Below are positions 177 to 61,265 of a stretch of 64,000 bases of DNA, piece after piece (the stretch's first letter is position 1; every line of letters begins with the position of its first letter). The notes beneath the pieces were generated by a model that saw only the letters and a program-made list of their open reading frames with translations, had not been told where the DNA came from and did not search any database. The DNA comes from a virus. Its lineage: Duplodnaviria; Caudoviricetes. The stretch lies in the IMG/VR virus record IMGVR_UViG_3300017722_005389; one strand, 5' to 3'. The position numbers were made by a program, and so were the translations under genes.

Positions 177-1325
177 ATGAAAAAAATAATCCTCACAGAA
201 AATCAATATAGGCTTCTTTTGAAAGAAGCATCAGGAGTTCCAAACAATATTATAAATGTTGCTTCACAAATATATAATCAATTAATTAAAGATTTAAAAA
301 ATGATGAACAATTGATCTATGATTTTAATAATACTAAATTTAAAATAAATAGAAATTTTGAAATAGGCGATGTTACTTTCAAAGACAGTTATATCAATTT
401 AATTTTAAGTGTAGGTGGTGATGAAATAACCCCATATCAATTTGGAACAAATCCAAAAGATTATCAATATTTTACTAATGATTTGAAACTTAAACCAAAA
501 AATGAAACCCTACCAATTATTGTTGATGTTGGTTTTATGGTTAGTACCGATACTACTGTAAAAGATTTCAAAAATCATTTGATATCCAATGAAACTGAAT
601 ATGTATCAACCATAGCACATGAAATAAAACACGCATATGATTTAATTAAAAATCCTAAGCCTAATATAGATTCTATGGCTAACTATTTAGCAAATACAAG
701 TATGTCAGCCTATGAGTTTGAAGAATTTTTTTATAACTTATATTATATAGAAAATGTTGAAAATTTGGTAAGACCCACAGAAATTATTACTCAAATTGAA
801 AAACTTGGAATAACTAAAAAAGATTTTTTATCATTCATAACCTCAAATAAAGTGGTGACTCAATTAAAAGAAATACAATCATTTAGTTTTGATGACTTAT
901 ATAATTCAATCTTAAAAGAAAGGTTGGAAAAAAATAAAAATAGAAGAGAATTAAATCACTACACTCTTGAATACACACCATTACCACCAAAAGAAGAATC
1001 TGAAATTGTTCAAGAATTAAATAATACCTTAGATAGAATATTCCAAATCCATAAAAGAAATAGAGTAGAAGGTTTCATAAATATTCTTGAAGAAATATTT
1101 GATACAAAAGAAATACCCGAAGAAATTAAGAAAAATGCAATAGAAAAATTTGAAAAGGATACCAATAAATTATTTGGTGGGAATTCAGCTAATTTTTATA
1201 GAGAAGCAGAAAAATTAATGAAAACTAAATCTACTGAAGTTTTACGAAAGATTTATGGATTATATGCTTTAACTAAAGACAATCCAGATAATGTAAAAAA
1301 TACCCAAAACATATTCAAAAGGTAA
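177..1325 (+). CDS. Leader-bearing putative virion/ejected protein, zincin-like metallopeptidase
   Basis: MKKIILTENQYRLLLKE leader; TIAHEIKH (HExxH); paralogous to 47115..48461 (EASGVPNNI vs EALGVPDNI; ENLVRPTE vs ENSVRTSE). Confidence 0.75.
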   Translation: MKKIILTENQYRLLLKEASGVPNNIINVASQIYNQLIKDLKNDEQLIYDFNNTKFKINRNFEIGDVTFKDSYINLILSVGGDEITPYQFGTNPKDYQYFTNDLKLKPKNETLPIIVDVGFMVSTDTTVKDFKNHLISNETEYVSTIAHEIKHAYDLIKNPKPNIDSMANYLANTSMSAYEFEEFFYNLYYIENVENLVRPTEIITQIEKLGITKKDFLSFITSNKVVTQLKEIQSFSFDDLYNSILKERLEKNKNRRELNHYTLEYTPLPPKEESEIVQELNNTLDRIFQIHKRNRVEGFINILEEIFDTKEIPEEIKKNAIEKFEKDTNKLFGGNSANFYREAEKLMKTKSTEVLRKIYGLYALTKDNPDNVKNTQNIFKR

Positions 1326-1336
1326 TTGAATAACAA

Positions 1337-1909
1337 ATGAAAAAAATAATCCTCACAGAGAATCAATATAGACTTCTTTTGAAAGAAAATGAAAAATCTC
1401 TTGAAAAATTTTATCAAGAAAATAATATCGATGAAGATGATCTTTCATATTTAGGTAAAGGTGATTTTGGTAAAGCTTATTCAATAGGAAATAGAAGAGT
1501 TCTAAAGATAACTTCCTCAAAAAATGAATTTGAAATTGCAAAAGAACTTAAAAATAATAATTCACCTGTATTTGATTCATTTGCAAAAATCTATAAGACT
1601 GAAATAATTGGTAGAGATATGTATATTATTTTAGAAGAATTAGATACAGATTCAAGTATACAAGATTTATATTATGAACTGCAAAATCTTTTAGATGAAC
1701 AAGGTCTTCCAATTCAATATCTTAGTTATTTAGATACAGATGAATTGAATATATCTAAAAAATTACAAAGTTTCATGGATGATATGGAAGATATCATAAG
1801 AGCTTATAGAACTTTAGGCATAGAAGCTTCTGATATAAGACCTGAGAATTTAGGTTATTCGGAAAACTTAAAATTGAAAGCATTTGATATAGATAATAAA
1901 CAAAGATGA
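1337..1909 (+). CDS. Leader-bearing protein kinase-like protein
   Basis: LGKGDFGKAY (Gly loop), VLKIT..E, YIILEEL, DIRPEN (catalytic loop), AFDID. Confidence 0.8.
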   Translation: MKKIILTENQYRLLLKENEKSLEKFYQENNIDEDDLSYLGKGDFGKAYSIGNRRVLKITSSKNEFEIAKELKNNNSPVFDSFAKIYKTEIIGRDMYIILEELDTDSSIQDLYYELQNLLDEQGLPIQYLSYLDTDELNISKKLQSFMDDMEDIIRAYRTLGIEASDIRPENLGYSENLKLKAFDIDNKQR

Positions 1910-2646
1910 AAAAAATAATCCTCACAGAAAATCAATATAGACTCCTTTTGAAAGAAGCAAAGGAAAATGTAATATACATTCCATATGACGATGATGACTA
2001 TGATGAACAAGAATCAAGCATAGATGAATACCAAGCTGCAGATGATGCCCTCAAAATTGCAAAAGAAACAGGTGTCAATATCCTAAGAGATAAAAATATC
2101 AAAGGAATACTTTATGATACTAATGAAAAAATTGTAGTAGGAGCACTATGGACTTCAGATGACTCAGATACATTCTCCTTCGATATAGCCATAACCCCAT
2201 CATACCAAAATCAAGGACTCTCATCTGAACTTATAAGTAATGCTATAGATGAATATAATAACCAAAAAAGTATGTATGATGAGATGGGAGAACCTTTCGG
2301 TATGGAAGTAGATGTTATAAATCCAAAGTTGGCGCAAATATTAACAAAACACTACGGATTTAAAACTATCAAAAATGTAAACGACACAAGAGTCTTAATG
2401 ACTATTAACGATCAAAAAGATGAAACCGTCAAGTGTAGTAACTGTGGTTGGGAATGGAAATTAAAAGATGGTGGCAAAAAACCATATTTATGTCATAAGT
2501 GTGGTCATGATAACTCAAAGGCAGAATTAACTGAAAGATGTTGGAAAGGTTACACTCAAAAAGGAATGAAAACAATGTTCGGAAAAAAATACCCTAATTG
2601 TGTTAAAAAAATAAATGATACAAGAACCCTAATAAACATCAAATGA
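1906..2646 (+). CDS. Leader-bearing GNAT acetyltransferase fused to Zn-ribbon and CWKGY micro-domains
   Basis: FDIAITPSYQNQGLSSELI (GNAT motif A); CSNC..CHKC; ERCWKGY..PNCVK. Confidence 0.7.
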   Translation: MKKIILTENQYRLLLKEAKENVIYIPYDDDDYDEQESSIDEYQAADDALKIAKETGVNILRDKNIKGILYDTNEKIVVGALWTSDDSDTFSFDIAITPSYQNQGLSSELISNAIDEYNNQKSMYDEMGEPFGMEVDVINPKLAQILTKHYGFKTIKNVNDTRVLMTINDQKDETVKCSNCGWEWKLKDGGKKPYLCHKCGHDNSKAELTERCWKGYTQKGMKTMFGKKYPNCVKKINDTRTLINIK

Positions 2647-3107
2647 AAAAAATAATCCTCACAGAAAATCAATATAACTTCCTTTTGAAAGAAAATAGAT
2701 CTGAATTATACTCCTATTTAGAATCTGTTAAAGATAATATTGCTAAAGCAGCTCAAAAAGTTTATGATAATTGGGAACAAGATGAAGAAGGTTATGATGA
2801 AGTTTATGGAGGCGGAGGTATCTGCGATGATATAGCTGACGCAATGTGCAATGTAATACAAGGATATGATTGCTTTCATTTATATAATGAACATGATTGC
2901 CATACTTCTATCTATGTTTACGATACTGAAAATAAGGAAATTTATAATGTAGACATCCCTCCGTATAAATATGAAAAAGGATATGGATATACCTGGGAAA
3001 AAATACAAGATGTAGAATTATCAAATAAAGATGTTCAAATAAATGATTTAACTTACGATGAATATATTGATGAAGACGGAGAACCTCTTGAATATCTTTT
3101 TAATTAA
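2643..3107 (+). CDS. Leader-bearing hypothetical protein
   Basis: Leader; acidic domain with GGGICDDIA motif. Confidence 0.8.
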   Translation: MKKIILTENQYNFLLKENRSELYSYLESVKDNIAKAAQKVYDNWEQDEEGYDEVYGGGGICDDIADAMCNVIQGYDCFHLYNEHDCHTSIYVYDTENKEIYNVDIPPYKYEKGYGYTWEKIQDVELSNKDVQINDLTYDEYIDEDGEPLEYLFN

Positions 3108-3230
3108 TACACTATCTCGTAATCCTAATGATGAAATATTTGACTTCTAATGAAGTTTATATACTTTCTAATGAAATGTATAAGGTTTCTAATGAAGTAC
3201 GCTTAAAATGCCTAAAGAATGAGAAATAGA

Positions 3231-3938
3231 ATGAAAAAAATAATCCTCACTGAAAATCAATACGAAAAATTAAAACATGATGCATCCTATTACGATGAAT
3301 CTAATACACGCATCCCTAAAGAAATAGAATTTAATAAGTTAGGCGTAGATGACGAACTTACTATATACTTCAAAGATAATGTTGATAAAGACACCATAAC
3401 CGAATTTCTTAAAGAATTTAACTCCGCAAGAAAAAAAATAGAAAATAGATTCAAACTCAAACTCGGTAGACAATATAAGGATCCAGATGCTCAATATAAT
3501 ATATTCTTTGGAAAAAATATTGTCTTCGATGATACATATAATGGATACAGCTCCGCAGAATACATAAGAGGCTATGCACAACATTCTCCCACAGACAGCT
3601 TCTACTTCAACCTACCTAAAGTCAAAGAACTTTACGATATGGCAAAAAAAGACTGGATACCAAACCCAAACTATAAAGCAAATAAATCAAGAAGCTATAA
3701 TATTAATAAAATAGAAGACATCATTATACACGAAATAGCACACGCCCTCTATTTCCAACAACCAACCTCCAAAAGAAAACAATGGGAAGAATACTTCAAT
3801 CAAGAAGGTTGGCAAAACGCCACATCATTTTATGGGCAAGAAAATGATCAAGAAATGTTTGCTGAAACCATTGTTGACCTCATTAATGGAGAATCTAATC
3901 AAGCAGTATCTGACCTTGTTGAAATATTTGACTTCTAA
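3231..3938 (+). CDS. Leader-bearing zincin-like metallopeptidase
   Basis: Start moved to MKKIILTENQY; IIHEIAH and downstream EMFAE. Confidence 0.75.
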   Translation: MKKIILTENQYEKLKHDASYYDESNTRIPKEIEFNKLGVDDELTIYFKDNVDKDTITEFLKEFNSARKKIENRFKLKLGRQYKDPDAQYNIFFGKNIVFDDTYNGYSSAEYIRGYAQHSPTDSFYFNLPKVKELYDMAKKDWIPNPNYKANKSRSYNINKIEDIIIHEIAHALYFQQPTSKRKQWEEYFNQEGWQNATSFYGQENDQEMFAETIVDLINGESNQAVSDLVEIFDF

Positions 3939-4002: not shown

Positions 4003-4638
4003 ATGAAAAAAGTAGTCAAATTAAATGAATCAGATCTTACTAAATTGGTAAGAAAAATTATTAAAGAAAATCTTATCAATGAAGGGATAAGAGCTTACCG
4101 TGATTTTACAGAATTAGTTCGTATGGGAGGATTTAGTTCATCAGAATATTATATAACAATCGACACAGAACCCTTCGTATTAAAATTTACATCTACAAAA
4201 AACCCAAGTGGTATATTTTATATGGGTGATAATGATTGTGCAGGATCAGCTAAAGTTGTTGACTATGCAGTAAATTTATTTTACTCTGAAGCAAATAAAG
4301 AATTACCTTCGGATCAATTACAACCATTTGCCAAAAACATTGTAAAAACAGTTGATCAATATGCAAAAAGAAATTCTTTAATTCAATTTAAAGACTTATA
4401 TAATAATATAAAAGCCATAAATAATCCAAAGGTAATCTATAAAGTTTCATTTTTTGAAAATAATCCTTCCTCATTATCAAATATGATGTCTATGGGAAAT
4501 TTTAAAGATGTGCTTTCAAATGAACAACAACATTATCTGATAGAACATTACTTCAAAAATACTATGATGCAAGTAGTCGGAAATGGTAAAACTTATAAAG
4601 TATACTCACTATGCTATAAATCTCATTCTCTTGAATAG
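4003..4638 (+). CDS. Leader-bearing hypothetical protein
   Basis: MKKVVKLNESDLTKLVRKIIKE..LINE leader. Confidence 0.8.
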   Translation: MKKVVKLNESDLTKLVRKIIKENLINEGIRAYRDFTELVRMGGFSSSEYYITIDTEPFVLKFTSTKNPSGIFYMGDNDCAGSAKVVDYAVNLFYSEANKELPSDQLQPFAKNIVKTVDQYAKRNSLIQFKDLYNNIKAINNPKVIYKVSFFENNPSSLSNMMSMGNFKDVLSNEQQHYLIEHYFKNTMMQVVGNGKTYKVYSLCYKSHSLE

Positions 4639-4707: not shown

Positions 4708-4732
4708 AAAAGGGTTCAAAAGAACCCTTTTT
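4708..4732. terminator. Bidirectional intrinsic terminator
   Basis: aaaagggttc-aaaa-gaaccctttttt between convergent genes. Confidence 0.7.
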
Positions 4733-5477
4733 TGCTTCCTTTAGGTATATTATTGGAATTTCTATATTTAACCAAAAAATCATGCAAAGCTTTTATCTTT
4801 TCATAAGGAGTACTGTTACGATAAGCATTTAAATCTGTTGTAGACAACTCACTATCTAAAAGAAACAATTTTTCCCAATCTTTGAACACTCCCATATATT
4901 CAGGATGCTCCTCTACAAAATATTCAAAGGCTGGATAATTTATATCCCCTCCAACAAATATTTCAGAAGGATTTATTTTCGCATAGTTTATTGAACCATC
5001 CGAATCTATAATATTCTTAGCCTCTTGATATGCTCTTTCAAGCTCTTCTTTAGTATGTAAATTTAAATACGCAAATTCTAAGAATCTACTCAAAGGCTTA
5101 GTCAAAACAGAATTACCTAAAGCAGGTTTAATCAATTCTTCAAAAGATTCTAATGTTTTCTGTGCATTTCTTTTTCTCGTTAAAAGAATTAAATCTTGCC
5201 TGGTCTTTGTTATTAATTTATCTAAATTTTTAATGAATTCATCACTCTGATTCTTTCTATACCATTCATCAAATCCCTCTGGATCATCCATGAATTCATC
5301 TTGCTTACTGTTCCAATCAAAATTACTTTGATAATAATGACCGTACTCGTTTTTTAATGTATCTAATACTTCTTTGGGGAATGCATTAAAATTAACATCA
5401 AAATTTACATCCTCTCTTAAAACTTTCTGCGCATTCAACACACGAAGCTGCTTAACTATGAACTCTCTTAATAACAT
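4716..5477 (-). CDS. Leader-bearing hypothetical protein
   Basis: MLLREFIVKQLR..VLRE leader; 253 aa. Confidence 0.8.
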   Translation of the reverse strand: MLLREFIVKQLRVLNAQKVLREDVNFDVNFNAFPKEVLDTLKNEYGHYYQSNFDWNSKQDEFMDDPEGFDEWYRKNQSDEFIKNLDKLITKTRQDLILLTRKRNAQKTLESFEELIKPALGNSVLTKPLSRFLEFAYLNLHTKEELERAYQEAKNIIDSDGSINYAKINPSEIFVGGDINYPAFEYFVEEHPEYMGVFKDWEKLFLLDSELSTTDLNAYRNSTPYEKIKALHDFLVKYRNSNNIPKGSKKGFF

Positions 5478-5514: not shown

Positions 5515-6075
5515 TTACCCCCTTCCATAAAATGCTAATATTTTTTTTCGACCTAATTCAACATGTGCAGCCATTCTATGAGCACCATCACGAAATCTAC
5601 TATCAGTGTAAATTATTGGAGGCAACTCTTCACCACTTCTTATGATATCCATATATTCGTTAACCCTATCAAAATGCTCTAAATCTTCATAATCATCTGC
5701 TAATCTATATTTAGTAAAACTTTCAATTGTTGGAACATACATCAATTCATATTCACCTCTAAATTTACCTGTTGAATCATCCGCAAAATGCCCCATCCTT
5801 TCATATACTTCTGGCAAATCTTCAGCAGAAACAATTTCCCCTAATTTAACACCACCCCATTCAATTCTTTCATCTTCAGATATAGGCTCCACTTCAGGTT
5901 TTGGTGTCGATCTTAATAACGCTTCTAATTTAGGAATATTAGCAATTTCTTCAGGTGTGCCTTCACCGTAATATTTCAACCAGGCTAATTCAATAAATAA
6001 CTCATCGTACCCTTCATCATTAATTTCTTCATTCAATTGACGAAGCTGCTTAACTATGAACTCTCTTAACAACAT
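5515..6075 (-). CDS. Leader-bearing protein with ParB/sulfiredoxin-like domain
   Basis: ELPPII..DGAHRMAA....G...I..F at C-terminus. Confidence 0.65.
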   Translation of the reverse strand: MLLREFIVKQLRQLNEEINDEGYDELFIELAWLKYYGEGTPEEIANIPKLEALLRSTPKPEVEPISEDERIEWGGVKLGEIVSAEDLPEVYERMGHFADDSTGKFRGEYELMYVPTIESFTKYRLADDYEDLEHFDRVNEYMDIIRSGEELPPIIYTDSRFRDGAHRMAAHVELGRKKILAFYGRG

Positions 6076-6186: not shown

Positions 6187-7029
6187 TTATCCGTTAATAT
6201 ATCTATACAAATATGACACAAGCTTTGAACGCATCTTTATTGATAGTAATTCAAATCCGTTAAAATTATTCAATAAAAACTTGTAAGATGAATTGAAATC
6301 TTTAAGCTTTATTCTATTTCTTTTGACTTTACTTAACAACTCTGAAAAACTTGCCCAAACTTCAGAAGTTTGAGTGATATAGTCATTTCCATACCCATCA
6401 ACATAATCGATGCCTATTTTATTATTACTTCTATAATCATCAAACATGTGTCTTAATTCATGGGATAAATTATATATGTAAATGGGTATTAAATATTTTT
6501 GCACTATTTTTTTAACCTCTTCTTTTGTCAATTCACGATCATACTTCTTTTCTAATTTTCTAATACTGGCATATATTAAAGAATTTGTTTCTTGATGATT
6601 GTAATTAATTTTTATTGTGTTTGAATCAAATCCATATGCTAAATTACCATAGACATTAGAGGGCAATCTATTGGTAAAAATAACAATGCATTTTGTAATG
6701 TGTAAAAACTCTTCAAATTCATCATCAAACCCCTTTTCTGACCATTTGTTAAATATTGCATCACATTTTATTTTATAATCATCCTGTAAAATTTCTATAC
6801 CAGTACTATTTTCTAAATCATCCATGATATAATCAATTATTACACTCAAATCCAATTTAGATACTATTTCCTTAGATACTTCATATAAACTATTTTGACT
6901 GCTTAAAAATCCCTCATTAAGCATATTTTCACTATTTTTAACATTTTTTGAATACACCGAAATATCCTCAAATGAATTCTCATTCAAATATTCTATTATA
7001 GTTGCCTTTATAAACTCTCTTAACAACAT
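6187..7029 (-). CDS. Leader-bearing zincin-like metallopeptidase
   Basis: Start moved to MLLREF; LSHELRH and SEVWA. Confidence 0.7.
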   Translation of the reverse strand: MLLREFIKATIIEYLNENSFEDISVYSKNVKNSENMLNEGFLSSQNSLYEVSKEIVSKLDLSVIIDYIMDDLENSTGIEILQDDYKIKCDAIFNKWSEKGFDDEFEEFLHITKCIVIFTNRLPSNVYGNLAYGFDSNTIKINYNHQETNSLIYASIRKLEKKYDRELTKEEVKKIVQKYLIPIYIYNLSHELRHMFDDYRSNNKIGIDYVDGYGNDYITQTSEVWASFSELLSKVKRNRIKLKDFNSSYKFLLNNFNGFELLSIKMRSKLVSYLYRYING

Positions 7030-9122: not shown

Positions 9123-10124
9123 TTAAAGAGGATTTCTTACTAATCTTTGTAAATTATCTTTAATACTTAGTATTATATTTCGTATGGTACTAAGTTGCCC
9201 TTTAACCTGTTCAATTCCCATACTTTCATCAAGTTTATTAACATATCTATTTAAATCCATAATAAGTCTATCAAAATAATTATCAACTGCAGTAATTTTA
9301 AAACTATTTTCAAAAATATTCCTTTTTGATTTTTTATTTCGTGATAAATAACTTTCTGATAAAGGAAGATTTAAAATAGAAGCAATTGAATCTTCAATAG
9401 GAGCTAATATTTGATCAACTGAATTAGAAAACATTTTTTCTGTAATATTGTCATCAATATATTTGTACTTTAAAGTTTCAAAACTTCTATTGAATTGTCT
9501 TACATTATCTTTCATTTGTTGCAATTTAGCCCCTAATTCATTATTTTGTGATTTAGGCGTATTTTGCTGCTGAGGAACGTTATTTTGCTGCTGAGGAACG
9601 TTATTTTGCTGCTGAGGAGTATTATTTTGCTGCTGAGGATATAATGGTTCAACTATTGGTATTAAATCTAGCATTCGATCTATAGACATTTTAAAAGGCA
9701 AAAGTCCATATTGAAATTTTCTGATAAAGTTATCTAATTCATCATTATCCGAAATTTCATAAATTTTCTTTAAAACTGAAAAAACTTCCAATGTTGCTTC
9801 AAGGATTTTAGGAAGCCTAATTTTCAATATTGAAAGAGTATCTAAAGGAGAAGCTGAATTTGGTAATTCAACCTTAAACATGTTATAAACTGCACTAGAT
9901 AATGTACTGTATTTTTCAAAATAATTTTCGACTAAATTTGAAACCTTAGAAGTATCAGTATTATTTAAAAATCTCTTAAATTCAGTTTGAATTTCTATAG
10001 CGTTGTTATAGTTTCCTATGAGTACTTTAAATTCATTACGCATCTCTTCTTTTGGATCCCTTTCAACTTCCTCTTTAATAACTCTTCTTACTAATTTTTT
10101 TAATTCATTCAACTTGATTTTCAT
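9123..10124 (-). CDS. Leader-bearing helical protein with PQQQNN repeats
   Basis: MKIKLNELKKLVRRVIKE leader; 21-bp repeat at 9560-9638. Confidence 0.8.
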   Translation of the reverse strand: MKIKLNELKKLVRRVIKEEVERDPKEEMRNEFKVLIGNYNNAIEIQTEFKRFLNNTDTSKVSNLVENYFEKYSTLSSAVYNMFKVELPNSASPLDTLSILKIRLPKILEATLEVFSVLKKIYEISDNDELDNFIRKFQYGLLPFKMSIDRMLDLIPIVEPLYPQQQNNTPQQQNNVPQQQNNVPQQQNTPKSQNNELGAKLQQMKDNVRQFNRSFETLKYKYIDDNITEKMFSNSVDQILAPIEDSIASILNLPLSESYLSRNKKSKRNIFENSFKITAVDNYFDRLIMDLNRYVNKLDESMGIEQVKGQLSTIRNIILSIKDNLQRLVRNPL

Positions 10125-10225: not shown

Positions 10226-11236
10226 TCAATCTCGTTCAGTTAATTTTATTTTATCTATAATATATTGTATTAACCGAATGGTTTCAGATGAAACATATTG
10301 ATAGTTACCAAAATTTTTATTATTAGAAGCATATTCATTTAAATCATCCTCCATTCCTTGCAAACGTTCTAAATATTTCTGTGAATACCCTTTAAGTAAA
10401 TGTATCCAATTATCATTACTTTTTAAAAAATTTGTTAACTCTTTTAAACCACTAACTATTTCATTTTTTTCCTCATTATCAATATCTTCTTCATAATCCA
10501 TTTCCAATATACTTACAGCATTTTGCAATTTAATCATTTTTTCTGAAAAATCTTTAATGCCATTAGTTTTTTCTTGTATTTTTTTATCTATATCTGGATA
10601 ATCTTCCAATAAATCATCGTCAAATTTTATTTTTGGATTTTTGTTTGAAAAATCTCTTGTAACAATATCTAGAATAATTCTTATTATCTTATTTTCATCA
10701 AATTTATTTCTTGTAATTGATACAATCATTGGATCAAAATAACCCTCAAAATAAATTGAATAAAATTCATTGTCATTTGCAATCTTTTCCCAAATATTTC
10801 GAGCTTGAGGTGTTGCTGATGGTGTTGAACTTGCCCACCCCAAAAATTTAATAAAACTCTTATAAATTAAATAACCCAAACCATATCCCCTCAACTCTTC
10901 AGGTATTCCATCTGAAAAATGAATCCTATTTTTTGGTAATCTTTCAGATGTAATAATAATATTACTTAATATTTTATTTTTATCTTTAATGTTTTTAAAA
11001 TGAGTATTAATAAATTCATCCGAAAAAATTACATGATAATCATCATAGATATAATCAGCTGTTATCTTTTCAAAAGATATTCCATCAATACCTGAAATTT
11101 TATGCCCCCTCTTTTCATAATTTGGTTTCATTGTATAATCTAAATAGGTATCGGTTAAATCAAGTCCCTCCTCAAATTCTACTGATAACTCTTGAACAAT
11201 TCTATTATATTGACTCTCAGTAATTATAATTTTCAT
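10226..11236 (-). CDS. Leader-bearing GNAT-like protein
   Basis: MKIIITESQY leader; ELRGYGLGYLIY and A.NIWEK motifs. Confidence 0.6.
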   Translation of the reverse strand: MKIIITESQYNRIVQELSVEFEEGLDLTDTYLDYTMKPNYEKRGHKISGIDGISFEKITADYIYDDYHVIFSDEFINTHFKNIKDKNKILSNIIITSERLPKNRIHFSDGIPEELRGYGLGYLIYKSFIKFLGWASSTPSATPQARNIWEKIANDNEFYSIYFEGYFDPMIVSITRNKFDENKIIRIILDIVTRDFSNKNPKIKFDDDLLEDYPDIDKKIQEKTNGIKDFSEKMIKLQNAVSILEMDYEEDIDNEEKNEIVSGLKELTNFLKSNDNWIHLLKGYSQKYLERLQGMEDDLNEYASNNKNFGNYQYVSSETIRLIQYIIDKIKLTERD

Positions 11237-13869: not shown

Positions 13870-14190
13870 TTAAAATCTAAATCTAAATATCCCACTATTA
13901 AAAAGCTTTTTAACCTGTGGATTATATTTATTTGCTGGAGCATTTTTATATTGTGAAAAATCATCTTTGGTTAATTTTCTTCCCATTCGTTTTTCTAAAC
14001 AGTTCATACAAAGAGTATTTGATTCATTACCATATTCACTCCAGATGTCATCATTTACCATATACATATCGTAATCATAAGTACCACAATCCTTACAAGT
14101 GAATCTTTCAATCTCCTCTTGAGGTATATCGGTTTCTTCTTTGATAATTGCTTTTACAATTTGTCTGAGTTCGCTTAATTTGATTTTCAT
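13870..14190 (-). CDS. Leader-bearing Zn-finger protein
   Basis: CKDC...LCMNCLEKRMGR. Confidence 0.75.
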   Translation of the reverse strand: MKIKLSELRQIVKAIIKEETDIPQEEIERFTCKDCGTYDYDMYMVNDDIWSEYGNESNTLCMNCLEKRMGRKLTKDDFSQYKNAPANKYNPQVKKLFNSGIFRFRF

Positions 14191-24910: not shown

Positions 24911-25011
24911 AAAATAAATTTTAATAAGTGAATTAAATATTTGACCCTACAAAGATATGCAAAGCAATTCACATTTCCAAATGAAATCCAAGATTTCTTT
25001 TGAAATAATTT

Positions 25012-26577: not shown

Positions 26578-26595
26578 AATAAAATTGTTTTAAAT

Positions 26596-38771: not shown

Positions 38772-38854
38772 AATAGTGAGTTTAAAAGTGAAATAATAAG
38801 TACAAAAATATGCAAAAGTTTTGAAACGGCAAAATTTTAAATGTTAAATTTTTA

Positions 38855-49003: not shown

Positions 49004-49897
49004 ATGATAAACGAATCAAAATTAAACTCAAAGATGTTTCATTTGATGGAAAGTGGTTTCTTTGGGAAGCAAGTTTTGAATGAGGCTGAAGAGATAAAGC
49101 AGGGTGCTTATGGGGATCCGTATCAATATAAGAGGGTTGAAACTCCTGATGGCATCAAATATATGTATGCTAAAAAGGGGAATGACAATTGGGTTGAACA
49201 AATTTACAAAGTTGGAATTGATAGTATCAAAAAATTGATATTTCCAAAGGATTTGGAAGGTTCTTCAGAAAAAACAAGTGCTTCTTCAGAAAAAACAAGT
49301 GCTTCTTCAGAAAAAACAAGTGCTTCTTCAGAAAAAAAAGATGCTTCTTCAGAAAAAAAGAGTGCTTCTCCAGAAACAAAGGCTTCTTCAGAAAAATCTT
49401 CTTTTGCAAGCAAATTTATGAGCAGTGGAACTTACGATGCCATATTTGTAGCAGGTGACAAAACACGTATTCCCATTCCAAGTCAATTACAATATTTTAA
49501 GAATGGGTTTGGCAAGGATAGGAATGTTGCAGCATTTGATTCTAATGCAGGTTGTGTTCCATTTGGACACAAACAGACAATTGAGCAAGTGTTGGCTGAA
49601 AATCCTAAGATACCTGTATTTTTGTATAGTTTAGGTGCAATATATGTAGACAGGGTTGCTTCAAATGGTAATGCGGATGTTCGAAAGATATTTGTAATTG
49701 AGCCTTATTATGGAAGGGGGCAACATGTTAAAGATAATATAGATGTAGCTATTGGTATGGGTGTCAAGCCTAGCCAAATTTATGTTGGAGGATATGCTGA
49801 TGTAGGATTAGGTGTTGTTAAAGGTGCTACACCTACTAAATCTAATAATCACTCTTTAGCTGTAACAGAAGTTGCTGAAATACATAAGAATGCGTAA
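49004..49897 (+). CDS. Leader + GDPYQYK module + SSEKTSA repeats + alpha/beta-hydrolase-like domain
   Basis: PVFLYSLGA; 21-bp tandem repeat 49261-49400. Confidence 0.7.
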   Translation: MINESKLNSKMFHLMESGFFGKQVLNEAEEIKQGAYGDPYQYKRVETPDGIKYMYAKKGNDNWVEQIYKVGIDSIKKLIFPKDLEGSSEKTSASSEKTSASSEKTSASSEKKDASSEKKSASPETKASSEKSSFASKFMSSGTYDAIFVAGDKTRIPIPSQLQYFKNGFGKDRNVAAFDSNAGCVPFGHKQTIEQVLAENPKIPVFLYSLGAIYVDRVASNGNADVRKIFVIEPYYGRGQHVKDNIDVAIGMGVKPSQIYVGGYADVGLGVVKGATPTKSNNHSLAVTEVAEIHKNA

Positions 49898-49965: not shown

Positions 49966-50976
49966 ATGATAAACGAATCAAAATTAAACAACAAGATGCT
50001 CCATTTGATGGAAAGCGGTTTCTTTGGGAAGGGACTTTTAAAGGAACAAGAAGAAGTGAAACAAGGAGGTCAGGGAGATCCATACCAGTATAAAAAAGTT
50101 AAGAATACTGATGGAACTGTGAAATATTTTTATGCTAAAAAGGGTAATACTAATTGGGTTGAACAAAAATATAAAGAAGGTATTGATAGTATTAAAAAAT
50201 ATTATTTTCCAGATGAAGGAAATACTTCTACGGAAACAAAACCTGAAACAAAACCTGAAACAAAACCTGAAACAAAACCTGAAACAAAACCTGAAACAAA
50301 TGGGCAAGAAGTGATTAAACAAGGAGGTCAGGGTGATCCCTACCAATATAAAAGAGTTCAAAATACAGATGGTAGTGTAAAATATTTTTATGCTAAAAAG
50401 GGTGATACTAATTGGACTGAACAAAAAGATCCAACAGGTATTAGTGATATTCAAAAATATTATTTTACAGATGATTTTAAAGGTTCTACTGGAGCAAAAA
50501 CTGATGCAGGTGTAAAAGATAATACAGGTGTAAAAGATAATACAGGTGTAAAAGATAATACTGCTAATACAAATGCTGAAATGGACAGTAAAGAATTGGC
50601 TAGAAGGCAAAAGAGTTTTTATGCTGGGTTATCTAAAATTAGTTTGGCAGCAAATAATTTCACTTATAAAAAGGGTAATTTTGAGATAAATGATATTACA
50701 ACAAGCACCCCTAGTATACGTTTTAGGGATTATAATGGTAAATATATGGATGAGACTAAAATAGAGATAGATCCTGAGTTTATAAAAATAGCAAAAGCTA
50801 AAGGGTTTAGTGAAAGAGGATGTTGGGTATATAGGGCAATTGAAGATGTAGAGGGTGAATATAAATATGCCAAAAAAGGATTATATCTTTTCAAATGTGG
50901 ATCTGGCTCTTATCCATATAGATATAACATGTCAATAGATGAGTTGAAAAAAATATCATATGTATATTCAAAATAA
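49966..50976 (+). CDS. Leader + two GDPYQYK modules + ETKP and GVKDNT repeats + unknown C-domain
   Basis: Internal duplication visible in protein and DNA. Confidence 0.8.
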   Translation: MINESKLNNKMLHLMESGFFGKGLLKEQEEVKQGGQGDPYQYKKVKNTDGTVKYFYAKKGNTNWVEQKYKEGIDSIKKYYFPDEGNTSTETKPETKPETKPETKPETKPETNGQEVIKQGGQGDPYQYKRVQNTDGSVKYFYAKKGDTNWTEQKDPTGISDIQKYYFTDDFKGSTGAKTDAGVKDNTGVKDNTGVKDNTANTNAEMDSKELARRQKSFYAGLSKISLAANNFTYKKGNFEINDITTSTPSIRFRDYNGKYMDETKIEIDPEFIKIAKAKGFSERGCWVYRAIEDVEGEYKYAKKGLYLFKCGSGSYPYRYNMSIDELKKISYVYSK

Positions 50977-51083: not shown

Positions 51084-51296
51084 ATGGAAGATGAATTTTC
51101 TTTACGTTTATTTATTGGATTATTTGCTGCAGATGTTGATATTTTTTTGCTTCAGAATAAAGAGCAAACTGCTGATAATGACAAAGAGTTTTTCACCAGA
51201 GATGAGATAAGATCTCAATTGAAAGCTACGGTTTCAAAATTTGCGAACGTGATGCAGCATTTAGGATATAATCTTGATAAACCATTACTCAAATGA
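51084..51296 (+). CDS. Hypothetical protein
   Basis: 70-aa ORF after a tatctttg -7 box. Confidence 0.7.
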   Translation: MEDEFSLRLFIGLFAADVDIFLLQNKEQTADNDKEFFTRDEIRSQLKATVSKFANVMQHLGYNLDKPLLK

Positions 51297-52138
51297 AATA
51301 TTATTTATTTTTACTATTATTATTTTACAATTGCACGTTTGTAGCTTCTTCGGAACCACAGATTTCATCAGAATTTGAAAAAATTTCTGAAGAACCCAAC
51401 AATGGTATTCAGTTGAGGGTTTTATCTTGGAACATCCAGAATTTTGGAGAAAGCAAGATGAAGAATGACAGCATAATGCATTATATAGCGGAGGTTATAA
51501 ATTCTTATGATATTGTTGTGATTCAGGAGATATCAACGAGTATTTATGGGGCTAAAGCTGTTGCAAAGTTGGATGGCATATTGGACAGGATGGGAAGTAA
51601 TTGGGATTATGCTATTTCGGATCCAACTGAAGGTGTTGGAACTGAGCGGTATGCTTATATTTTCAAGCCAAGCAGAATTCAATTGAAAAAGGCATTTCTT
51701 GAGAAGGTTTTTGAAACTTCTATAGAGAGGGAGCCTTATTTGGGAATTTTTGAATTCAAGGGAAGTTTATATAACTTCTATAACATCCATTTGGTTCCAG
51801 AGGGCAAAAATCCTGAGAAGGAGGTAAGTGTCTTATGTATGTTAAGTGGTTTTAAGGGAAAGTATATTGTTCTTGGGGATTTCAATCTTTCTGAAAAGCA
51901 TCGTTCATTTGATTGTCTTAAGAAGACTTATAAGGCTTCATTTGAGAATGAGAAGACTTCTTTGAAGATGGAGGTTAAAGATGGTGAATATTTGAACAAG
52001 GAGTATGACAATGCTTTTATTTCTTCAGAGGTTACATTGATTTCTAAAGGGGTTGTGCATTTTTACAAGGATTTTAATAATATAAAATCTGCGAGAGCTG
52101 TTTCAGATCATTGTCCTATATTTATAACTATAAAATAA
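51293..52138 (+). CDS. Exported DNase I-like endonuclease/exonuclease/phosphatase
   Basis: SWNIQNF, DIVVIQEI, ERYAYIF, REPY, HL, GDFN, SDHCPI; hydrophobic N-terminus. Confidence 0.9.
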   Translation: MKYYLFLLLLFYNCTFVASSEPQISSEFEKISEEPNNGIQLRVLSWNIQNFGESKMKNDSIMHYIAEVINSYDIVVIQEISTSIYGAKAVAKLDGILDRMGSNWDYAISDPTEGVGTERYAYIFKPSRIQLKKAFLEKVFETSIEREPYLGIFEFKGSLYNFYNIHLVPEGKNPEKEVSVLCMLSGFKGKYIVLGDFNLSEKHRSFDCLKKTYKASFENEKTSLKMEVKDGEYLNKEYDNAFISSEVTLISKGVVHFYKDFNNIKSARAVSDHCPIFITIK

Positions 52139-53327: not shown

Positions 53328-53561
53328 TTATTTTGTTTTATTACAAGAATCAATATAGTCTTTTAGTTTCTCAATTTCTTTTTCTGACATTGTTTTTAAT
53401 TTTTTTTTGGAGATTCCATGAGCCAATGCATCTTCTGCCCAATCATATTTAAGTTTTGCTTCGTTTTTTCCGAGTGAGATTGGATCATTATCATCTTCAC
53501 TTTTTTCCATTTCTTCTTTGATGATTGTTTTTACCAATCTTTTAAAATTTTGCAGGTTCAT
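53328..53561 (-). CDS. Leader-bearing small protein
   Basis: FKRLVKTIIKEE leader. Confidence 0.7.
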   Translation of the reverse strand: MNLQNFKRLVKTIIKEEMEKSEDDNDPISLGKNEAKLKYDWAEDALAHGISKKKLKTMSEKEIEKLKDYIDSCNKTK

Positions 53562-55776: not shown

Positions 55777-57528
55777 ATGAAAATAAGATTAACTGAATCG
55801 CAGTATATTGATTTTTTAAATGAAAAAAAATTAAGATTCTTAAGAAAAAACGGTTGCAATACTTGCAATAAAAAAAGTGGATTATTAGCAGAAATGTACT
55901 TACAAGAAGATTTAAAGGTAGGTAAAGGTGTTGTTTGTTTGAATCAAAATGATGTTGCAGAATATATAAATTCTGTTAGGCTGGGTGCAGTAAAAATTGC
56001 TGATAAATACAAACAGTTTCTCGATATTATTAATTTTAATAAATTACAAGGTAAAACATTTACTACAGCAAATCCATTTATACATGGAAAATCTAAATTA
56101 TTTTTCGATGATGAAGGAGGTGTACAAACAGAAAATAAACGTATTACTCAATTAAAAAAAGAATTAGATGAATTATATACAGAGTATCGAAAGGCTATAA
56201 CTTCAAAAAGTGGTTCTGCAGATAACATAGCTAATAAAATAAAGAAAAGGCTTGGAAATCTTTTAGATATATATGAAGGTTTAGAGGTTGATATAGAAAA
56301 TTTTAGAAAGAATTTATTAGTTGAGCCAAGAACTATTATCAGTAAGAATGAAAAAATGATGAAATCTGGGGGCAAGAACGATGTAGTTGTAAATACAGGT
56401 ATTCCAGCTGTTGGAGCTATTGTATTTAATACAGCAGCTAATGAATTTCAAATGGTTGAGACTTGTCCTGGTAGGGGTACTTGTGTTAATTTCTGTTATG
56501 CATTGACAAGTAATTATACTCGTTTTATGGGTACTTATGATGTTATGATAAGAAGGTTGAATTTAATGATTAATAACCCTAAAAAATATGAAGATAAATT
56601 ATTTAATGAATTATATAATTTAGCTAAAAATAAAAATGCTTTTTTATATAAGGCTGAACTTAATGATGTTGTGAGAAACTTCATTTCAAAAGGAAAAAAA
56701 CAATTAAATAATCTAAAAAATCAAAATCCTGAATTGAGTTTTGATGAAATTTTTGATTTCAAAAAAATAGGATTAGGAAAGGAATTTGAAGAATATATGA
56801 CAGCTTATTTAATTGAAAAAAAGAGGGTAGTGTTAAGATGGAATGATTCAGGAGACTTTTTTAATGAAACTTATCAAGTATTAGCATCAAATGTATTAAA
56901 GCGATTAAGAGATTTGGATGTGTATATTGTCAGTACGACTTATACCAAGATTGCAGATGTTAGTGCAGATGTTAAAAAATTGTTTAGTAAAGAAATGGAT
57001 TTTGCAATTTATTCTATAGGTGGTGCAAGTAAAGTTGAAACTAAGAAGTTTAATGCTGCAACTGAAACTAATAGACCTATTAAAAAGGCTATAAGTCCTC
57101 AAGGTGATATATTTATAAATCCTATAACAAAAGAACCGTATGATTATCTTTTTTCAGATTTAAATTATATCTTAGATATAAGAAAACAAAAGGAACCAAA
57201 TAATAAGATATATACTGCTATAGCTAAAACTTATTTTAAAACTGAATATAATCCAAAGGATCATATACAATCAAGTAAAATTAAAAATGAAATAGAGTCA
57301 TTAATTCCATCTGTAAGAGAGGAATTTAAAGAGCAAATGAAGGAATACTTAAAAAGAGAATATAATGAATCTGTTAGTTTTTTTGATATTGTTTTTCTTG
57401 ATGAATTAAAAAATAATCCAAAGAAACAATATGGTGAAAAAAGATATTATGTTATAGTTCCAAAAGGATCTGGGGATGATGCAACCATATACAGCACTAC
57501 TAAATGGATATTGAATTTATTACACTAA
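55777..57528 (+). CDS. Leader-bearing GP88-like (radical-SAM-related) protein
   Basis: MKIRLTESQY leader; TCPGRGTCVNFCYA; LRWNDSGDFF; TYTK. Confidence 0.75.
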   Translation: MKIRLTESQYIDFLNEKKLRFLRKNGCNTCNKKSGLLAEMYLQEDLKVGKGVVCLNQNDVAEYINSVRLGAVKIADKYKQFLDIINFNKLQGKTFTTANPFIHGKSKLFFDDEGGVQTENKRITQLKKELDELYTEYRKAITSKSGSADNIANKIKKRLGNLLDIYEGLEVDIENFRKNLLVEPRTIISKNEKMMKSGGKNDVVVNTGIPAVGAIVFNTAANEFQMVETCPGRGTCVNFCYALTSNYTRFMGTYDVMIRRLNLMINNPKKYEDKLFNELYNLAKNKNAFLYKAELNDVVRNFISKGKKQLNNLKNQNPELSFDEIFDFKKIGLGKEFEEYMTAYLIEKKRVVLRWNDSGDFFNETYQVLASNVLKRLRDLDVYIVSTTYTKIADVSADVKKLFSKEMDFAIYSIGGASKVETKKFNAATETNRPIKKAISPQGDIFINPITKEPYDYLFSDLNYILDIRKQKEPNNKIYTAIAKTYFKTEYNPKDHIQSSKIKNEIESLIPSVREEFKEQMKEYLKREYNESVSFFDIVFLDELKNNPKKQYGEKRYYVIVPKGSGDDATIYSTTKWILNLLH

Positions 57529-57531: not shown

Positions 57532-58104
57532 ATGTCAAATCAAAGACCGAATACATTTCAACTTCTTCAGAACATTGATGGTTCTGAAGAAGTTTATACG
57601 CAAAATAACGGAATCAGTGAAAAATTCACTGTTGATCAGGTAAAAACGTATATTCTTCAGAACGTTGATGTTTGGGAGTATAAGGAGTTTATTTTGACAC
57701 CATCAGATTTGGCACAAATTTCAACAGTAAAGTTTCAGCTTCTTGATGAGAATGATTTGGGTTCTGATGAGTATTATGAGATTGGCAGAATAATATTTGA
57801 ATCAATTATTAATGAGGCAAATAATATTCCTAATGATGCAGGAAAACCTCTTTATTTGGTATATAAACAAAATCCGACAATACCTTACACTGATCCTCAT
57901 CCAAACAATGCTTTTGTCGATGATTTACCATCCACTTTGATAGGTTGTAGTTTACCTGTGGTATTTAATTATTACATGAACAAATCTTTTAGAGAATTTA
58001 CGCCAAATATGGGATTATATTTAGATTCTCAACTTAATGGAGGTGGCGGTACAGTTCAATATAAAATAAAAATTTATTACAAGAGGAGACCTATTAACTC
58101 ATGA
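57532..58104 (+). CDS. Adaptor-family paralog 1
   Basis: IDGSEEVYTQ N-terminus; YLDS..Y.IKIYYK C-terminus. Confidence 0.8.
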   Translation: MSNQRPNTFQLLQNIDGSEEVYTQNNGISEKFTVDQVKTYILQNVDVWEYKEFILTPSDLAQISTVKFQLLDENDLGSDEYYEIGRIIFESIINEANNIPNDAGKPLYLVYKQNPTIPYTDPHPNNAFVDDLPSTLIGCSLPVVFNYYMNKSFREFTPNMGLYLDSQLNGGGGTVQYKIKIYYKRRPINS

Positions 58105-58643
58105 GTATAAAAAGACCTACAGATTTTCCTGTGAAACCATTTATTGATGGTTCTGAAGAAATTTATACCCAGACTGGTGGAATTAATTATAAATTTACAG
58201 TCAATGATGTGGCTTCTTTAGTGTTACAAGGAGTTAACCAGTGGTTATATAAGGAAGTTATACCTAGTAGCTCTGAATGGGAGAGTGTAGATGTATCACC
58301 AATACAGCTTTTAGATGAAAGTTTGTTGGCTCCTAATGAATTTTATGAAGTTAACAGGATTATATGTGAGGTTATTGTCGGGGCAGTTTCAGGTCTTGAT
58401 AAATCTCCTATATATTTTTTATATAAACAAAATGCTTTAATCCCTTTAAATACTTCAAGTACTATTGGAGCAATTGATAGTACATTTTATGAATCAACCG
58501 TTAATGCTGTTAATGTTTATTATATGGAAGAGATTCCTGGATTGTTTCAAAAAGGAGATGGATTATATTTACAATCATTTATTGATGCAGTTCCTAATGA
58601 TTCAGTTTACACATTTAAGATTTATTATAGAATAAGCAGTTAA
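58101..58643 (+). CDS. Adaptor-family paralog 2
   Basis: IDGSEEIYTQ; LYLQS..FKIYYR. Confidence 0.8.
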   Translation: MSIKRPTDFPVKPFIDGSEEIYTQTGGINYKFTVNDVASLVLQGVNQWLYKEVIPSSSEWESVDVSPIQLLDESLLAPNEFYEVNRIICEVIVGAVSGLDKSPIYFLYKQNALIPLNTSSTIGAIDSTFYESTVNAVNVYYMEEIPGLFQKGDGLYLQSFIDAVPNDSVYTFKIYYRISS

Positions 58644-58645
58644 TT

Positions 58646-59167
58646 ATGGCAAATGTAAAACCTAATGAGTTTCCAATGAAACCATTTATTGATGGTTCTG
58701 AAGAAGTATATACCCAAACGCCAAGTGGCAATTACAAATACACTCTTTCAACAGCAATTGACTATATTTCCATTGGAGTTGATAAATGGGAGTCTATGGA
58801 ATTAGTTTTAACCCCCTCAAATATGGGAGTTAGTATAAATATTTTGGATGAAAATTTATTGGGTGTTAATGAATACTATGAGATTCATAAGGTGGTTATT
58901 ATGTATGATTTTGGCACAATAGCATATGATCAAAACTCATCAATTCGTTTTAGATTTTTGGATAATATAAATGCATATATTTACAACTTTTTTTCACTAC
59001 CAAAAACTTTTTTTGAAGAGCCAAATAGTTTTGTATCTTATTTTCATACTCAAAATGACCATGACCCATATTCTAGGAATACAGGTTTTTATTTGGAAGG
59101 CACCGATAGTTTATCAATCGGTGATGGTACTATAACAATTAGGGTTTATTACAAGATAAATTCTTAA
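58646..59167 (+). CDS. Adaptor-family paralog 3
   Basis: IDGSEEVYTQ; FYLEG..IRVYYK. Confidence 0.8.
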   Translation: MANVKPNEFPMKPFIDGSEEVYTQTPSGNYKYTLSTAIDYISIGVDKWESMELVLTPSNMGVSINILDENLLGVNEYYEIHKVVIMYDFGTIAYDQNSSIRFRFLDNINAYIYNFFSLPKTFFEEPNSFVSYFHTQNDHDPYSRNTGFYLEGTDSLSIGDGTITIRVYYKINS

Positions 59168-59691: not shown

Positions 59692-59695
59692 TATT

Positions 59696-59950
59696 TTATT
59701 TGGTTTTTATGGATTTCAACAGAAATTTATCTTGTTCTACTGAAATTTCGTTCATTTTCATTTGTAATGAGGTAAATGTTGACAAAAGTTCCATTTTATA
59801 GGTGGATTTTTTGTCATCATCAGGGGTTTCTTCGATTTTTTTAAGAATATTGTGGCAATTTTCGCTTAAATTCCAGTATTCTTCGTCTAAATTTTTAAAA
59901 TTTTCGTTAAAAGTCTCGAAATTTCTTTGGAGTGTTGATATTTTGTCCAT
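59696..59950 (-). CDS. Coiled-coil hypothetical protein
   Basis: 84-aa ORF. Confidence 0.65.
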   Translation of the reverse strand: MDKISTLQRNFETFNENFKNLDEEYWNLSENCHNILKKIEETPDDDKKSTYKMELLSTFTSLQMKMNEISVEQDKFLLKSIKTK

Positions 59951-61265
59951 TTGATTGCATTAGATTCTTAAGAAGCTCCTTCATTTCATATGGAGGGGCA
60001 TCTGTTACGTCATTATTATTAGTAGGAGAACCTTTTATCCATGTAGAAAGTTCATATATATCGTCAAAATCTATTTCATCTTCATTATTCCTAATTCTTT
60101 CGCTCCATTTCTCCCAAACACCCTTTCCATAGTTAAAAATATCTCTTAAAAAGTCTAAAATTTCCTTATTTTTTATTTTTTTTATATCTTTTATGTTAAA
60201 ATGTTCACTATTATAACTATAAAAGTAGTTTTCTAAGTTTCTAAAGAGGTTTGAAAGCTTGTTTTGGACTAATTTTAACTTCTCAAGAGTGATTATATAG
60301 TAGATTTTATCTAAATTTAACGATTTTACTGAATAAATGTTTGCAATATGCTTAAGATTTTTGCCTATAATCTTCTTTGAATTGATTGCTTCTGTGTGAT
60401 CAGTTGTCACTTTTAACACTTTATTACCTCCAATATCGTAAGCATGACCGAATAGACCCCCACCTAAATGCTTATAAGAAGTGATCCCAAGCTTATCGAA
60501 GATTTTATCCATGAAATCATACCCTTTATTTTCTTCATTTATGTTAAAGTCTTCAGGATCTTCATCAAAAGAATCAAAATAATTTCCAAAGCCGATATCA
60601 AAAATTGCTAAATCCCCATTAGGTTTCAATCCCCAATTAGAAACATTTAATATTTCGCCAGTATCTATATTATTTTCGCTTAATTCATCAATCATTGAAA
60701 GCATTTGATTGAATAACCATTCAAATTGCTTGTTTTTCAATGGAGGGATTTGTATATCGTCTATAGTACCATGTTCATAATAATGATGCATGATTTCTGC
60801 TAAAGACATTTTTTGTTCAGAGTACTCTAAAAGTTTTTTTTTTGAAGGGTTGTAATTTTCAAATATTTGAGGATTAATTCTTCCAAATTTTCTCATCATA
60901 ACACCTGCAAAAGAATTTGCTTCATTTTCATGAGGGCTTCCATCCTCTCCAGAGAGGTTTGTAAGCTCTCCATTGAGATCTTGTTGAACGTGTTTAAGTT
61001 CATGTGCTATACTTCTTAAAATGTCTCCTATATGCCTATTTTTAACATATACACAAAGGGATTTATCGGAAGGTTTATAATGTGCAAAGGTTGAGAGTTC
61101 ACCATCCCTTTTAGTTTTTAATTTTATAGCAAGTTTCTGCTTTATATTAAGTTGTTCTTTGCAAGAACTTATAAATTTCTTCATAAGTTCAAATTTTTCA
61201 TCGGTAATATATGGGTGTGAATCTGGAAGATTGCTGTATTGTTGTTCAGTTATAAGAATTTTCAT
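59907..61265 (-). CDS. Leader + zincin + kinase-like halves in reversed order
   Basis: IAHELKH..ENEANSFAG; SNWG..AIFDIG; HLGGGLFGHAY..VLKVT..E. Confidence 0.7.
   Translation of the reverse strand: MKILITEQQYSNLPDSHPYITDEKFELMKKFISSCKEQLNIKQKLAIKLKTKRDGELSTFAHYKPSDKSLCVYVKNRHIGDILRSIAHELKHVQQDLNGELTNLSGEDGSPHENEANSFAGVMMRKFGRINPQIFENYNPSKKKLLEYSEQKMSLAEIMHHYYEHGTIDDIQIPPLKNKQFEWLFNQMLSMIDELSENNIDTGEILNVSNWGLKPNGDLAIFDIGFGNYFDSFDEDPEDFNINEENKGYDFMDKIFDKLGITSYKHLGGGLFGHAYDIGGNKVLKVTTDHTEAINSKKIIGKNLKHIANIYSVKSLNLDKIYYIITLEKLKLVQNKLSNLFRNLENYFYSYNSEHFNIKDIKKIKNKEILDFLRDIFNYGKGVWEKWSERIRNNEDEIDFDDIYELSTWIKGSPTNNNDVTDAPPYEMKELLKNLMQSNGQNINTPKKFRDF

Follow-up and report, generated by a model that had tools for sequence, protein, structure and literature searches.

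Short portable leader peptides on many proteins of an uncultured freshwater jumbo phage: candidate capsid-targeting propeptides of T4-type head assembly

In phage T4, a capsid-targeting sequence (CTS) of ten residues suffices to package foreign proteins, its cleavage depends on its residues 8 and 10, the internal proteins of T-even phages differ widely except in this peptide, and reviews have suggested that it may be a general device for loading diverse proteins (PMC9026906, PMC3012670). Here we analyze a 64,000-nucleotide stretch of DNA (the window) from the virus record IMGVR_UViG_3300017722_005389, which derives from an uncultured freshwater jumbo phage and in which some two dozen open reading frames (ORFs) with otherwise unrelated products begin with a short leader peptide, mostly ending in hydrophobic-x-Glu, of one of four classes (A to D). 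From sequence comparison we hold, at a probability of roughly 0.55, that these leaders would be capsid-targeting propeptides of T4-type head assembly, cleaved by the prohead protease. Like the T4 CTS, which is carried by IPI-III and Alt and removed by gp21, they are short N-terminal peptides on otherwise unrelated proteins with a hydrophobic-x-Glu end; the leader DNA of paralogues is identical up to the Glu codon, as in T4 ipII and ipIII; and a gp21-type protease together with the T4 order of head genes is found in the window's relatives. Unlike it, they comprise 16-32 residues and at least four classes instead of a single length of 10, they mark 25-50 genes per genome as compared with 4-5 in T4, and their cargoes, as predicted from their genes, are mostly larger, enzyme-like or repeat proteins where those of T4 are small and basic. 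Because the T4 reviews already state it, the concept of a capsid-loading tag is not new; new are the leader sequences, their number per genome, the enzyme-like cargoes and the very wide occurrence.

Other described systems share some of these features. The phiKZ-like giants (SPN3US, phiKZ, 201phi2-1) also have many head-internal proteins, about 50 in SPN3US, and also cleave after the Glu of a three-residue motif, and identical N-termini on diverged paralogues have been noted among them (PMC5694885). Their propeptides, however, mostly exceed 100 residues, their motif is A/S/G-x-E, and no short portable leader family has been described there. The PeSL cassettes of the hyperplastic regions of T4-type phages are short repeated gene-start blocks that appear to mediate the shuffling of ORFans (PMC2839356), and here too a gene-start block is repeated, namely the leader, sometimes together with the promoter-like motif TATTTATA. 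Whereas PeSLs are non-coding early promoters or terminators, the block described here is coding, conserved as a peptide, and accompanied by a motif that it has in common with structural genes. MuF-toxin fusions and polyvalent proteins with MPTase or ArdC domains place variable effectors on a constant part that enters the virion, and the leaders resemble them in this attachment of variable domains to a constant part; there, however, the constant part is a large structural domain within one giant fusion, and here it is a 16-32-residue peptide on many separate genes. Cargo families were sought with Pfam and PHROGs in 45 tagged proteins from the window and from the near-complete relative G005, and a MuF or similar domain was found in none of them. 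A neighboring locus in a relative encodes a protein with ArdC-N and MPTase-PolyVal domains.

The original prediction had proposed four leader families at the heads of 25 listed ORFs, and in the main it stands: all 25 start sites are ORF starts, the four families are real, 23-24 of the 25 ORFs carry one, and [LIVMF]-x-E closes the leader at residue 16-32 in 23 of them, so that the proposed tag length of about 17 residues has to give way to a range of 16-32. A second hydrophobic-x-E lies at residue 4-9 in nearly all window leaders. Class A, M-K-(K)-I-I-[IL]-T-E-x-Q-[YLFH]-x-x-[LI]-x-x-E, heads 12 ORFs of the window; class B, M-K-I-K-L-x-E-L...I-I-K-E and variants, heads five and doubtfully a sixth (61706); class C (MLLREF...LNE) and class D (...HLMESGFFGK..L.E) head three each. 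These genes form two islands, at 0-15 kb and at 44.6-62 kb, and no leaders were found in the block of small ORFs between them (15-44 kb).

The window DNA has a G+C content of 26-33%, and the hosts of leader-bearing phages are probably Bacteroidota. Megablast of this DNA against cultured phages gave no nucleotide-level match, nor did tblastn and megablast of one full leader protein and three short leaders against them give any. Proteins identical to those of the window occur on short lake-metagenome contigs, ENA contigs of 271 and 276 kb encode others with 95% and 63% identity, and the longest contig with a member of one window protein's cluster measures 271,677 bp. The closest relative that could be searched whole is G001, an IMG/VR contig of 125.6 kb estimated to be 46% complete, which has a helicase 70% identical to that of the window and is syntenic with it at 44-62 kb; G001 also has a repeat mini-gene array. 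The near-complete G005 (281 kb) has 32-33 tagged ORFs in three classes, mostly located at 0-14 and 219-281 kb.

By comparison of paralogues and of cargo homologues, the leaders are genuine modules that are portable between genes. In the five class A paralogues from 177 to 3231, 51 nucleotides are near-identical, from the ATG to the codon of E17, and the genes are unrelated from the very next base; genes 13870 and 14201 are identical over their first 57 nt; and the class C paralogues share an upstream motif as well as leader DNA, such that in the genes starting at 6075 and 5477 the promoter-like motif and the first 36 coding nucleotides are nearly identical. The T4 genome, read as a control, displays the same pattern, with 30 identical nucleotides in ipII and ipIII that end at the E10 codon of the CTS before the genes diverge, and likewise in alt and alt.-1. 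Leaders and cargoes are also combined freely. Homologues of the ORF 49004 cargo join either a class D or a class A leader to one C-terminal domain, in some cases through a middle module, for example a peptidoglycan-binding domain, and 35 homologues of ORF 177 begin with class A, with a related 'L-I-K-K-I-L-K-E-E' type (class B'), with other leaders, or with stubs of only 3-6 residues, a Glu preceding the start of the conserved domain in every case. AlphaFold models the leader of ORF 48458 as a helix of its own (residues 8-18), set apart by a disordered linker (18-22) from the confidently modeled domain that follows. Could the tagged genes nonetheless be one large paralogous family in which the N-terminus stayed conserved while the rest diverged, leaving no portable tag? 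Most cargoes are ORFans, as such a family would predict, yet they include unrelated folds and families (leucine-rich repeats (LRR), lysozyme, GP88, HExxH and a small alpha/beta domain), leaders of different classes, or no leader at all, are found on members of one and the same cargo family, and the DNA identity ends abruptly at one codon, all of which renders this explanation scarcely credible.

Beyond the window, the leaders recur at protein starts and stop at a Glu. A class A hidden Markov model was applied to every stop-to-stop frame in the window and in three relatives, and its matches lay almost only 1-2 residues after the first Met. A degenerate DNA pattern of the class A core has at least 120 matches in IMG/VR, every listed one an ORF start, and position 12, which this pattern does not force, is Leu or Ile in 120 of 129 examples. 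Of 119 independent IMG/VR proteins of this class, 56% have a hydrophobic-x-E whose end lies 9-10 residues past the invariant Thr, the background being 2.3% per position elsewhere in the same proteins; expressed over the same five positions, the fixed-distance motif is present in 56-60% where 11% would be expected. The class B pattern, too, has at least 120 matches in IMG/VR, and across 143 distinct examples its unforced positions 13-22 read (T)-R-I-V-K-R-V-I-x-E with 70-99% conservation, E22 being present in 130 (91%) and conservation collapsing at residue 23. A class B profile made from 60 leaders and run against 1.84 billion cluster representatives matches 10,746 proteins at E <=0.001 and 1,039 at <=1e-10, and 143 of the best 150 matches have the core among their first 20 residues. 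Of the top 60, about two dozen (among proteins P0171-P0221) contain a second, internal copy, often devoid of Met, which suggests polyproteins of the form leader-cargo-leader-cargo, with two cargoes.

The leaders are specific to viruses: against 185,579 prokaryote species genomes, the class B pattern yields only seven matches, all on contigs of metagenome-assembled genomes. The class B pattern has no match in T4, in Flavobacterium phage immuto, in Microcystis phage Mel-JY01 or in LR756508, a phage of 484 kb; searches of IMG/VR with the exact class A DNA and with the class D pattern returned no match, and the leader strings are absent from the papers searched. A class B variant, L-T-E-S-D-L-H-x-I-[IV]-K-E-S, is present on contigs (L302, L304) binned with gut or rumen Prevotella, and the leader family therefore reaches beyond freshwater phages. 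Separately, immuto itself, a cultured T4-like phage (vB_FspM_immuto, MW353176), has shared N-terminal leader families of its own that end in hydrophobic-x-E (ORFs 1803, 103762, 117587 and 118588; 102250, 102836 and 113144; 25470 and 111631), and two small ORFs of its head module, 123311 and 125197, start like two of these families. Among the immuto leaders, MENFDLKKF...LKE is found on four ORFs and MKKSQL..I.E on three.

Is it the peptide that is shared, or the DNA? The repeated block might be a DNA or RNA cassette, consisting of promoter, translation start and first codons, that is spread by recombination in the manner of PeSL and whose peptide has no function. In keeping with this, leaders are associated with TATTTATA, which is found 5-16 nt ahead of the ATG where a leader transcription unit begins; those leader genes that lack it stand directly behind another leader gene or a motif-bearing gene. 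Within a genome, moreover, copies of the leader DNA hardly differ, and in class C this extends to the upstream motif; shuffling by recombination at regulatory cassettes has been documented for T4-type phages (PMC2839356); and some related phages encode the ribosomal protein bS21 (PMC9723584). Across phages, however, the amino acids are conserved and the codons vary, including switches between AGR and CGN; leaders also occur inside operons without the promoter motif; and Met-less copies occur inside longer proteins. In class B the conserved Arg is encoded now by AGR and now by CGN, and where two sequences have the same residue its codon is the same in only 56% of pairs, which argues that selection acts on the peptide itself. 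Owing to this codon-level variation and the Met-less internal copies, the cassette is the most weakened of the rival explanations, and we consider it very improbable. As for the motif, in G001 TATTTATA also stands before the genes for protease, scaffold candidate, terminase and fibre-like proteins, and in G005 before those for protease and sheath; in relaxed form it is found upstream of 50% of G001 genes in the structural region and 8% in the small-ORF block. It is likely a late promoter, a grade that we do not raise because the relaxed motif is frequent in AT-rich DNA.

The connection with head assembly comes from relatives. A gp21-like protease, whose gene the capsid-targeting reading calls for, is encoded by G001, where it takes its place in a T4-like gene order of terminase, portal, two small genes, S77 protease, scaffold candidate and gp23-type capsid protein. 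Peptidase_S77 (gp21-type) is present in 20 of 34 large leader-bearing contigs (12 of 21 in the class A set and 8 of 13 in the class B set) and in seven of the eight leader-bearing genomes that are at least 90% complete. The maturation cut of T4 gp23, which we take to fall after L-T-E (L-T-E/A), has its counterpart in an aligned column that reads I-L-N-E, L-I-N-E, I-V-S-E and L-V-T-E in G001, G005, immuto and G021. Among 120 capsid proteins of the lineage that were listed, this column holds [LIMV]-x-E, the E being present in 117 of 118; the capsid gene of the window's own phage is not among these 120 homologues. The relatives' proteases have L-I-E or L-V-E near the N-terminus, like T4 gp21 (PMC9026906), and the scaffold candidates and the genes in the position of gp67/68 contain hydrophobic-x-E at about twice the mean density.

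Some peculiarities of these head modules deserve mention in their own right. The S77 protease gene of G001 (38390-40246, minus strand; L013:1318-3174) encodes 618 aa as compared with the usual ~240, and the two halves of the protease match are split by an insertion of about 1 kb of coding sequence, which may represent an intein or a homing-endonuclease insert. A bS21 gene lies beside the prohead protease of G019 (110318-110470) and places this leader-bearing genome among the freshwater bS21 phages of Bacteroidota (PMC9723584); G001 and G005 do not have the gene. G021 was dropped as a reference because it has two head modules and may be a chimera: this IMG/VR contig (268.7 kb, rated 100% complete) carries two portals, two proteases and two capsid genes, one module being immuto-like and the other G005-like, and it is probably a chimeric assembly of two phages.

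A conserved peptide could also serve purposes other than capsid entry. The consensus leaders are amphipathic with heptad-like spacing, as would suit an uncleaved helix for docking to, or oligomerization on, a different partner common to many late proteins, for example the tail or baseplate, a membrane complex or a phage structure within the cell; the cargoes include a lysozyme and a GP88 protein adjoining fibre-like genes, and the internal second copies would fit a repeated docking element. Such a helix leaves unexplained, however, why conservation should stop at hydrophobic-x-Glu, a motif that is kept at the capsid maturation site, and why T4 ipII and ipIII should offer so close a parallel, and the true tail-fibre-like paralogues have a different and longer shared N-terminus. 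On balance we regard a docking helix as unlikely. Alternatively, a short transferable N-terminal peptide on many unrelated proteins may be another sort of address or a timer, that is, a degradation tag for a host or phage protease or a signal for export or localization in the infected cell, and cleavage directed by the Glu might just as well activate proteins or turn them over outside the capsid. Yet the leaders have neither a hydrophobic core nor a signal-peptidase motif, true signal peptides in these genomes differ from them (e.g., that of ORF 51293), and the link to S77-encoding genomes and to the capsid cleavage motif would remain unexplained, so that we deem this role distinctly unlikely.

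If the leaders are capsid-targeting propeptides, each would form a short amphipathic helix that binds the prohead scaffolding core, thereby enclosing any protein that carries it. The gp21-type (S77) protease would then cut after the leader-terminal hydrophobic-x-Glu, and perhaps also after the earlier L/I-T-E, which would free the cargo inside the head for ejection with the DNA. The near-identical leader DNA of paralogues could act as a recombination handle, through which phages would exchange cargoes and acquire new ones. We infer the steps of binding, packaging, cleavage and injection from the sequences.

Several observations weigh against this reading. The leaders share only the general form of the T4 CTS and have no sequence similarity to it, and as the class A and B patterns are moreover absent from T4, the relation would be one of analogy or very distant kinship. 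About 40% of class A leaders are without a Glu at the usual position, and in the window ORFs 3231 and 59907 show no hydrophobic-x-E where it normally stands. Given 25-50 tagged genes in each genome, a head would hold few copies of most cargoes. Some 170 kb separate the window from its own head module, and the evidence on protease and capsid comes from relatives at no more than ~70% identity. The relaxed motif TATTTA[TA], common in AT-rich DNA, stands upstream of 25% of all G005 genes. The model of the HExxH family places the invariant Glu at the border of the fold, and the needs of the domain itself may be what keeps this residue conserved. Lastly, a T4-lysozyme-type enzyme among the leader cargoes of G005 and the position of the window's GP88 protein beside fibre-like genes could each point to a role in the tail or in lysis.

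The first island opens on the plus strand with four class A genes, of which 177-1325 (leader 177-227, ending in L-K-E17) encodes a 382-aa HExxH...E protein and has TATTTATA 5 nt upstream of its ATG, the operon-internal 1337-1909 (leader 1337-1387, L-K-E17) a 190-aa ORFan with a GxGxxG motif, 1906-2646 (leader 1906-1956) a 246-aa protein with a weak GNAT match, and 2643-3107 (leader 2643-2693) a 154-aa acidic ORFan. Also on the plus strand, 3231-3938 has a class A leader truncated after Q-Y (3231-3263) and a cargo with HEIAH, and 4003-4638 has a class B-type leader (4003-4068, I-K-E22) on a 211-aa basic ORFan. The three class C genes lie on the minus strand: 4716-5477 (leader 5412-5477, with hydrophobic-x-E at 5 and 22, TATTTATA upstream), 5515-6075 (leader 6028-6075, L-N-E16) and 6187-7029 (leader 6979-7029, L-N-E17), the last starting 11 nt after TATTTAT and encoding a cargo with HELRH. 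For this last ORF the true start is 7029 and not 7080. Beyond them are, on the minus strand, 9123-10124, a 333-aa protein with a class B leader (10071-10124, I-K-E18), and 10226-11236, a 336-aa ORFan with a class A leader (11189-11236, V-Q-E16) and TATTTATA upstream; on the plus strand, 12957-13793, a 278-aa ORFan with a class A leader (12957-13004, I-S-E16); and again on the minus strand two class B genes, 13870-14190 (leader 14137-14190, I-K-E18), for a 106-aa protein with two CxxC pairs, and 14201-14914 (leader 14861-14914), for a 237-aa ORFan with TATTTATA upstream.

In the second island, seven plus-strand genes come in succession. A leucine-rich-repeat protein with a class D leader (44653-45537; leader 44653-44748, L-K-E32) is followed by a 252-aa ORFan conserved in G001, whose class A leader has I-T-E21 as the first hydrophobic-x-E past the core (45550-46308), by a class A gene whose cargo has HELQH (46317-47102; leader 46317-46364, L-F-E16), and by 47115-48461, in which a six-residue stub, M-R-T-I-N-E (I-N-E6), forms a minimal leader on an HExxH...E domain like that of ORF 177. 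The class A gene 48458-48979 (leader 48458-48505, L-K-E16) encodes a small alpha/beta domain, which recurs in the class D gene 49004-49897 (leader 49004-49084, L-N-E27) behind a middle module and a Ser/Glu/Lys-rich linker, and the class D gene 49966-50976 (leader 49966-50046, L-K-E27) is paralogous to ORF 49004 in its N-terminal half. In both of these class D proteins and in homologues P0002-P0009, modules are joined by long Ser/Thr/Glu/Lys-rich repeats (S-S-E-K-x-x-x units) whose length differs between strains. Between leader genes, 51293-52138 encodes a leaderless protein of the endonuclease/exonuclease/phosphatase family with a signal-peptide-like N-terminus. Further along are the minus-strand gene 53328-53561 for a 77-aa protein with a class B-type leader (53514-53561, I-K-E16), and the plus-strand gene 55777-57528 for the GP88-domain protein, which has a class A leader (55777-55824, L-N-E16) and TATTTATA upstream and adjoins three tail-fibre-like paralogues. 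The three paralogues, of 173-190 aa at 57532-59167, have another shared N-terminus, ...N-F-P...D-G-S-E-E-x-Y-T-Q, which is also present on three fibre-like proteins of 636-890 aa in G001 (24966-32277 and 66355-68001), and the window's versions look like short ones built on a common attachment domain. The minus-strand gene 59907-61265 has the class A core only (61227-61265) and a cargo with HELKH, and the plus-strand 61706-62155, with a loose class B-like start ending in I-R-E17, is a doubtful member.

What do the leaders carry? Most cargoes are ORFans without a detectable family, and the families recognized among the 45 tagged proteins are LRR, T4-type lysozyme, GP88, DUF6576 and the weak GNAT match. 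None of the 45 matches a replication or transcription enzyme family, in line with the original prediction that such enzymes would not be favored bearers. Its LRR and GP88 payloads were recovered with matches of 3e-19 and 1.5e-13, and its GNAT is detectable, albeit under the Pfam cut-off. As to the HExxH peptidases, the motif is found in six window cargoes and HExxH...E is invariant in one family, the enzymatic label being motif-based, and the proposed kinase has a single glycine-loop motif as its whole basis. For ParB no leader-bearing ORF was found, the only ParB-like ORF (16622) being without a leader. The alpha/beta hydrolase finds some backing in the model of ORF 48458, with a weak resemblance to cutinases: a fold search with the small alpha/beta model produced a best E of 4.5e-3, cutinases at TM 0.41-0.45, and no convincing PDB match. 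ORFs 177 and 47115 belong to a virus-only family with invariant H-E-x-x-H...E and a confident model (pLDDT 89), for which a fold search returned no convincing solved relative (Z <=5.0); given a confident model without a convincing solved match, this family may be a new kind of zinc peptidase.

A broader proposition, which we advance tentatively and at slightly less than even odds, is that a few short, strongly conserved peptides, with the consensus sequences M-K-I-I-I-T-E-S-Q-Y..L..E and M-K-K-I-I-R-L-T-E-S-D-L-T-R-I-V-K-R-V-I-x-E, are universal tags by which a large clade of uncultured, T4-type Bacteroidota phages loads its capsids, and that in each of these phages 10-15% of the genome (25-50 genes, some of them for two-cargo polyproteins) would be marked for packaging, cleavage and injection. 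Even with some other function for the tags, the conservation of 22 residues on more than 10,000 protein clusters would call for an explanation. Immuto offers a ready experimental system for the capsid-targeting idea, and the tags could serve as packaging handles in the engineering of Bacteroidota phages. If the proposition is true, the proteins that thousands of uncultured large phages inject could be listed from sequence alone, and many members of this injected set would likely act against host defence or in host takeover, or have folds with no known relative. Capsid targeting as known from T4 would then be no peculiarity of coliphages but a widespread, evolvable cargo system, in which cargoes are swapped by recombination at the tag.

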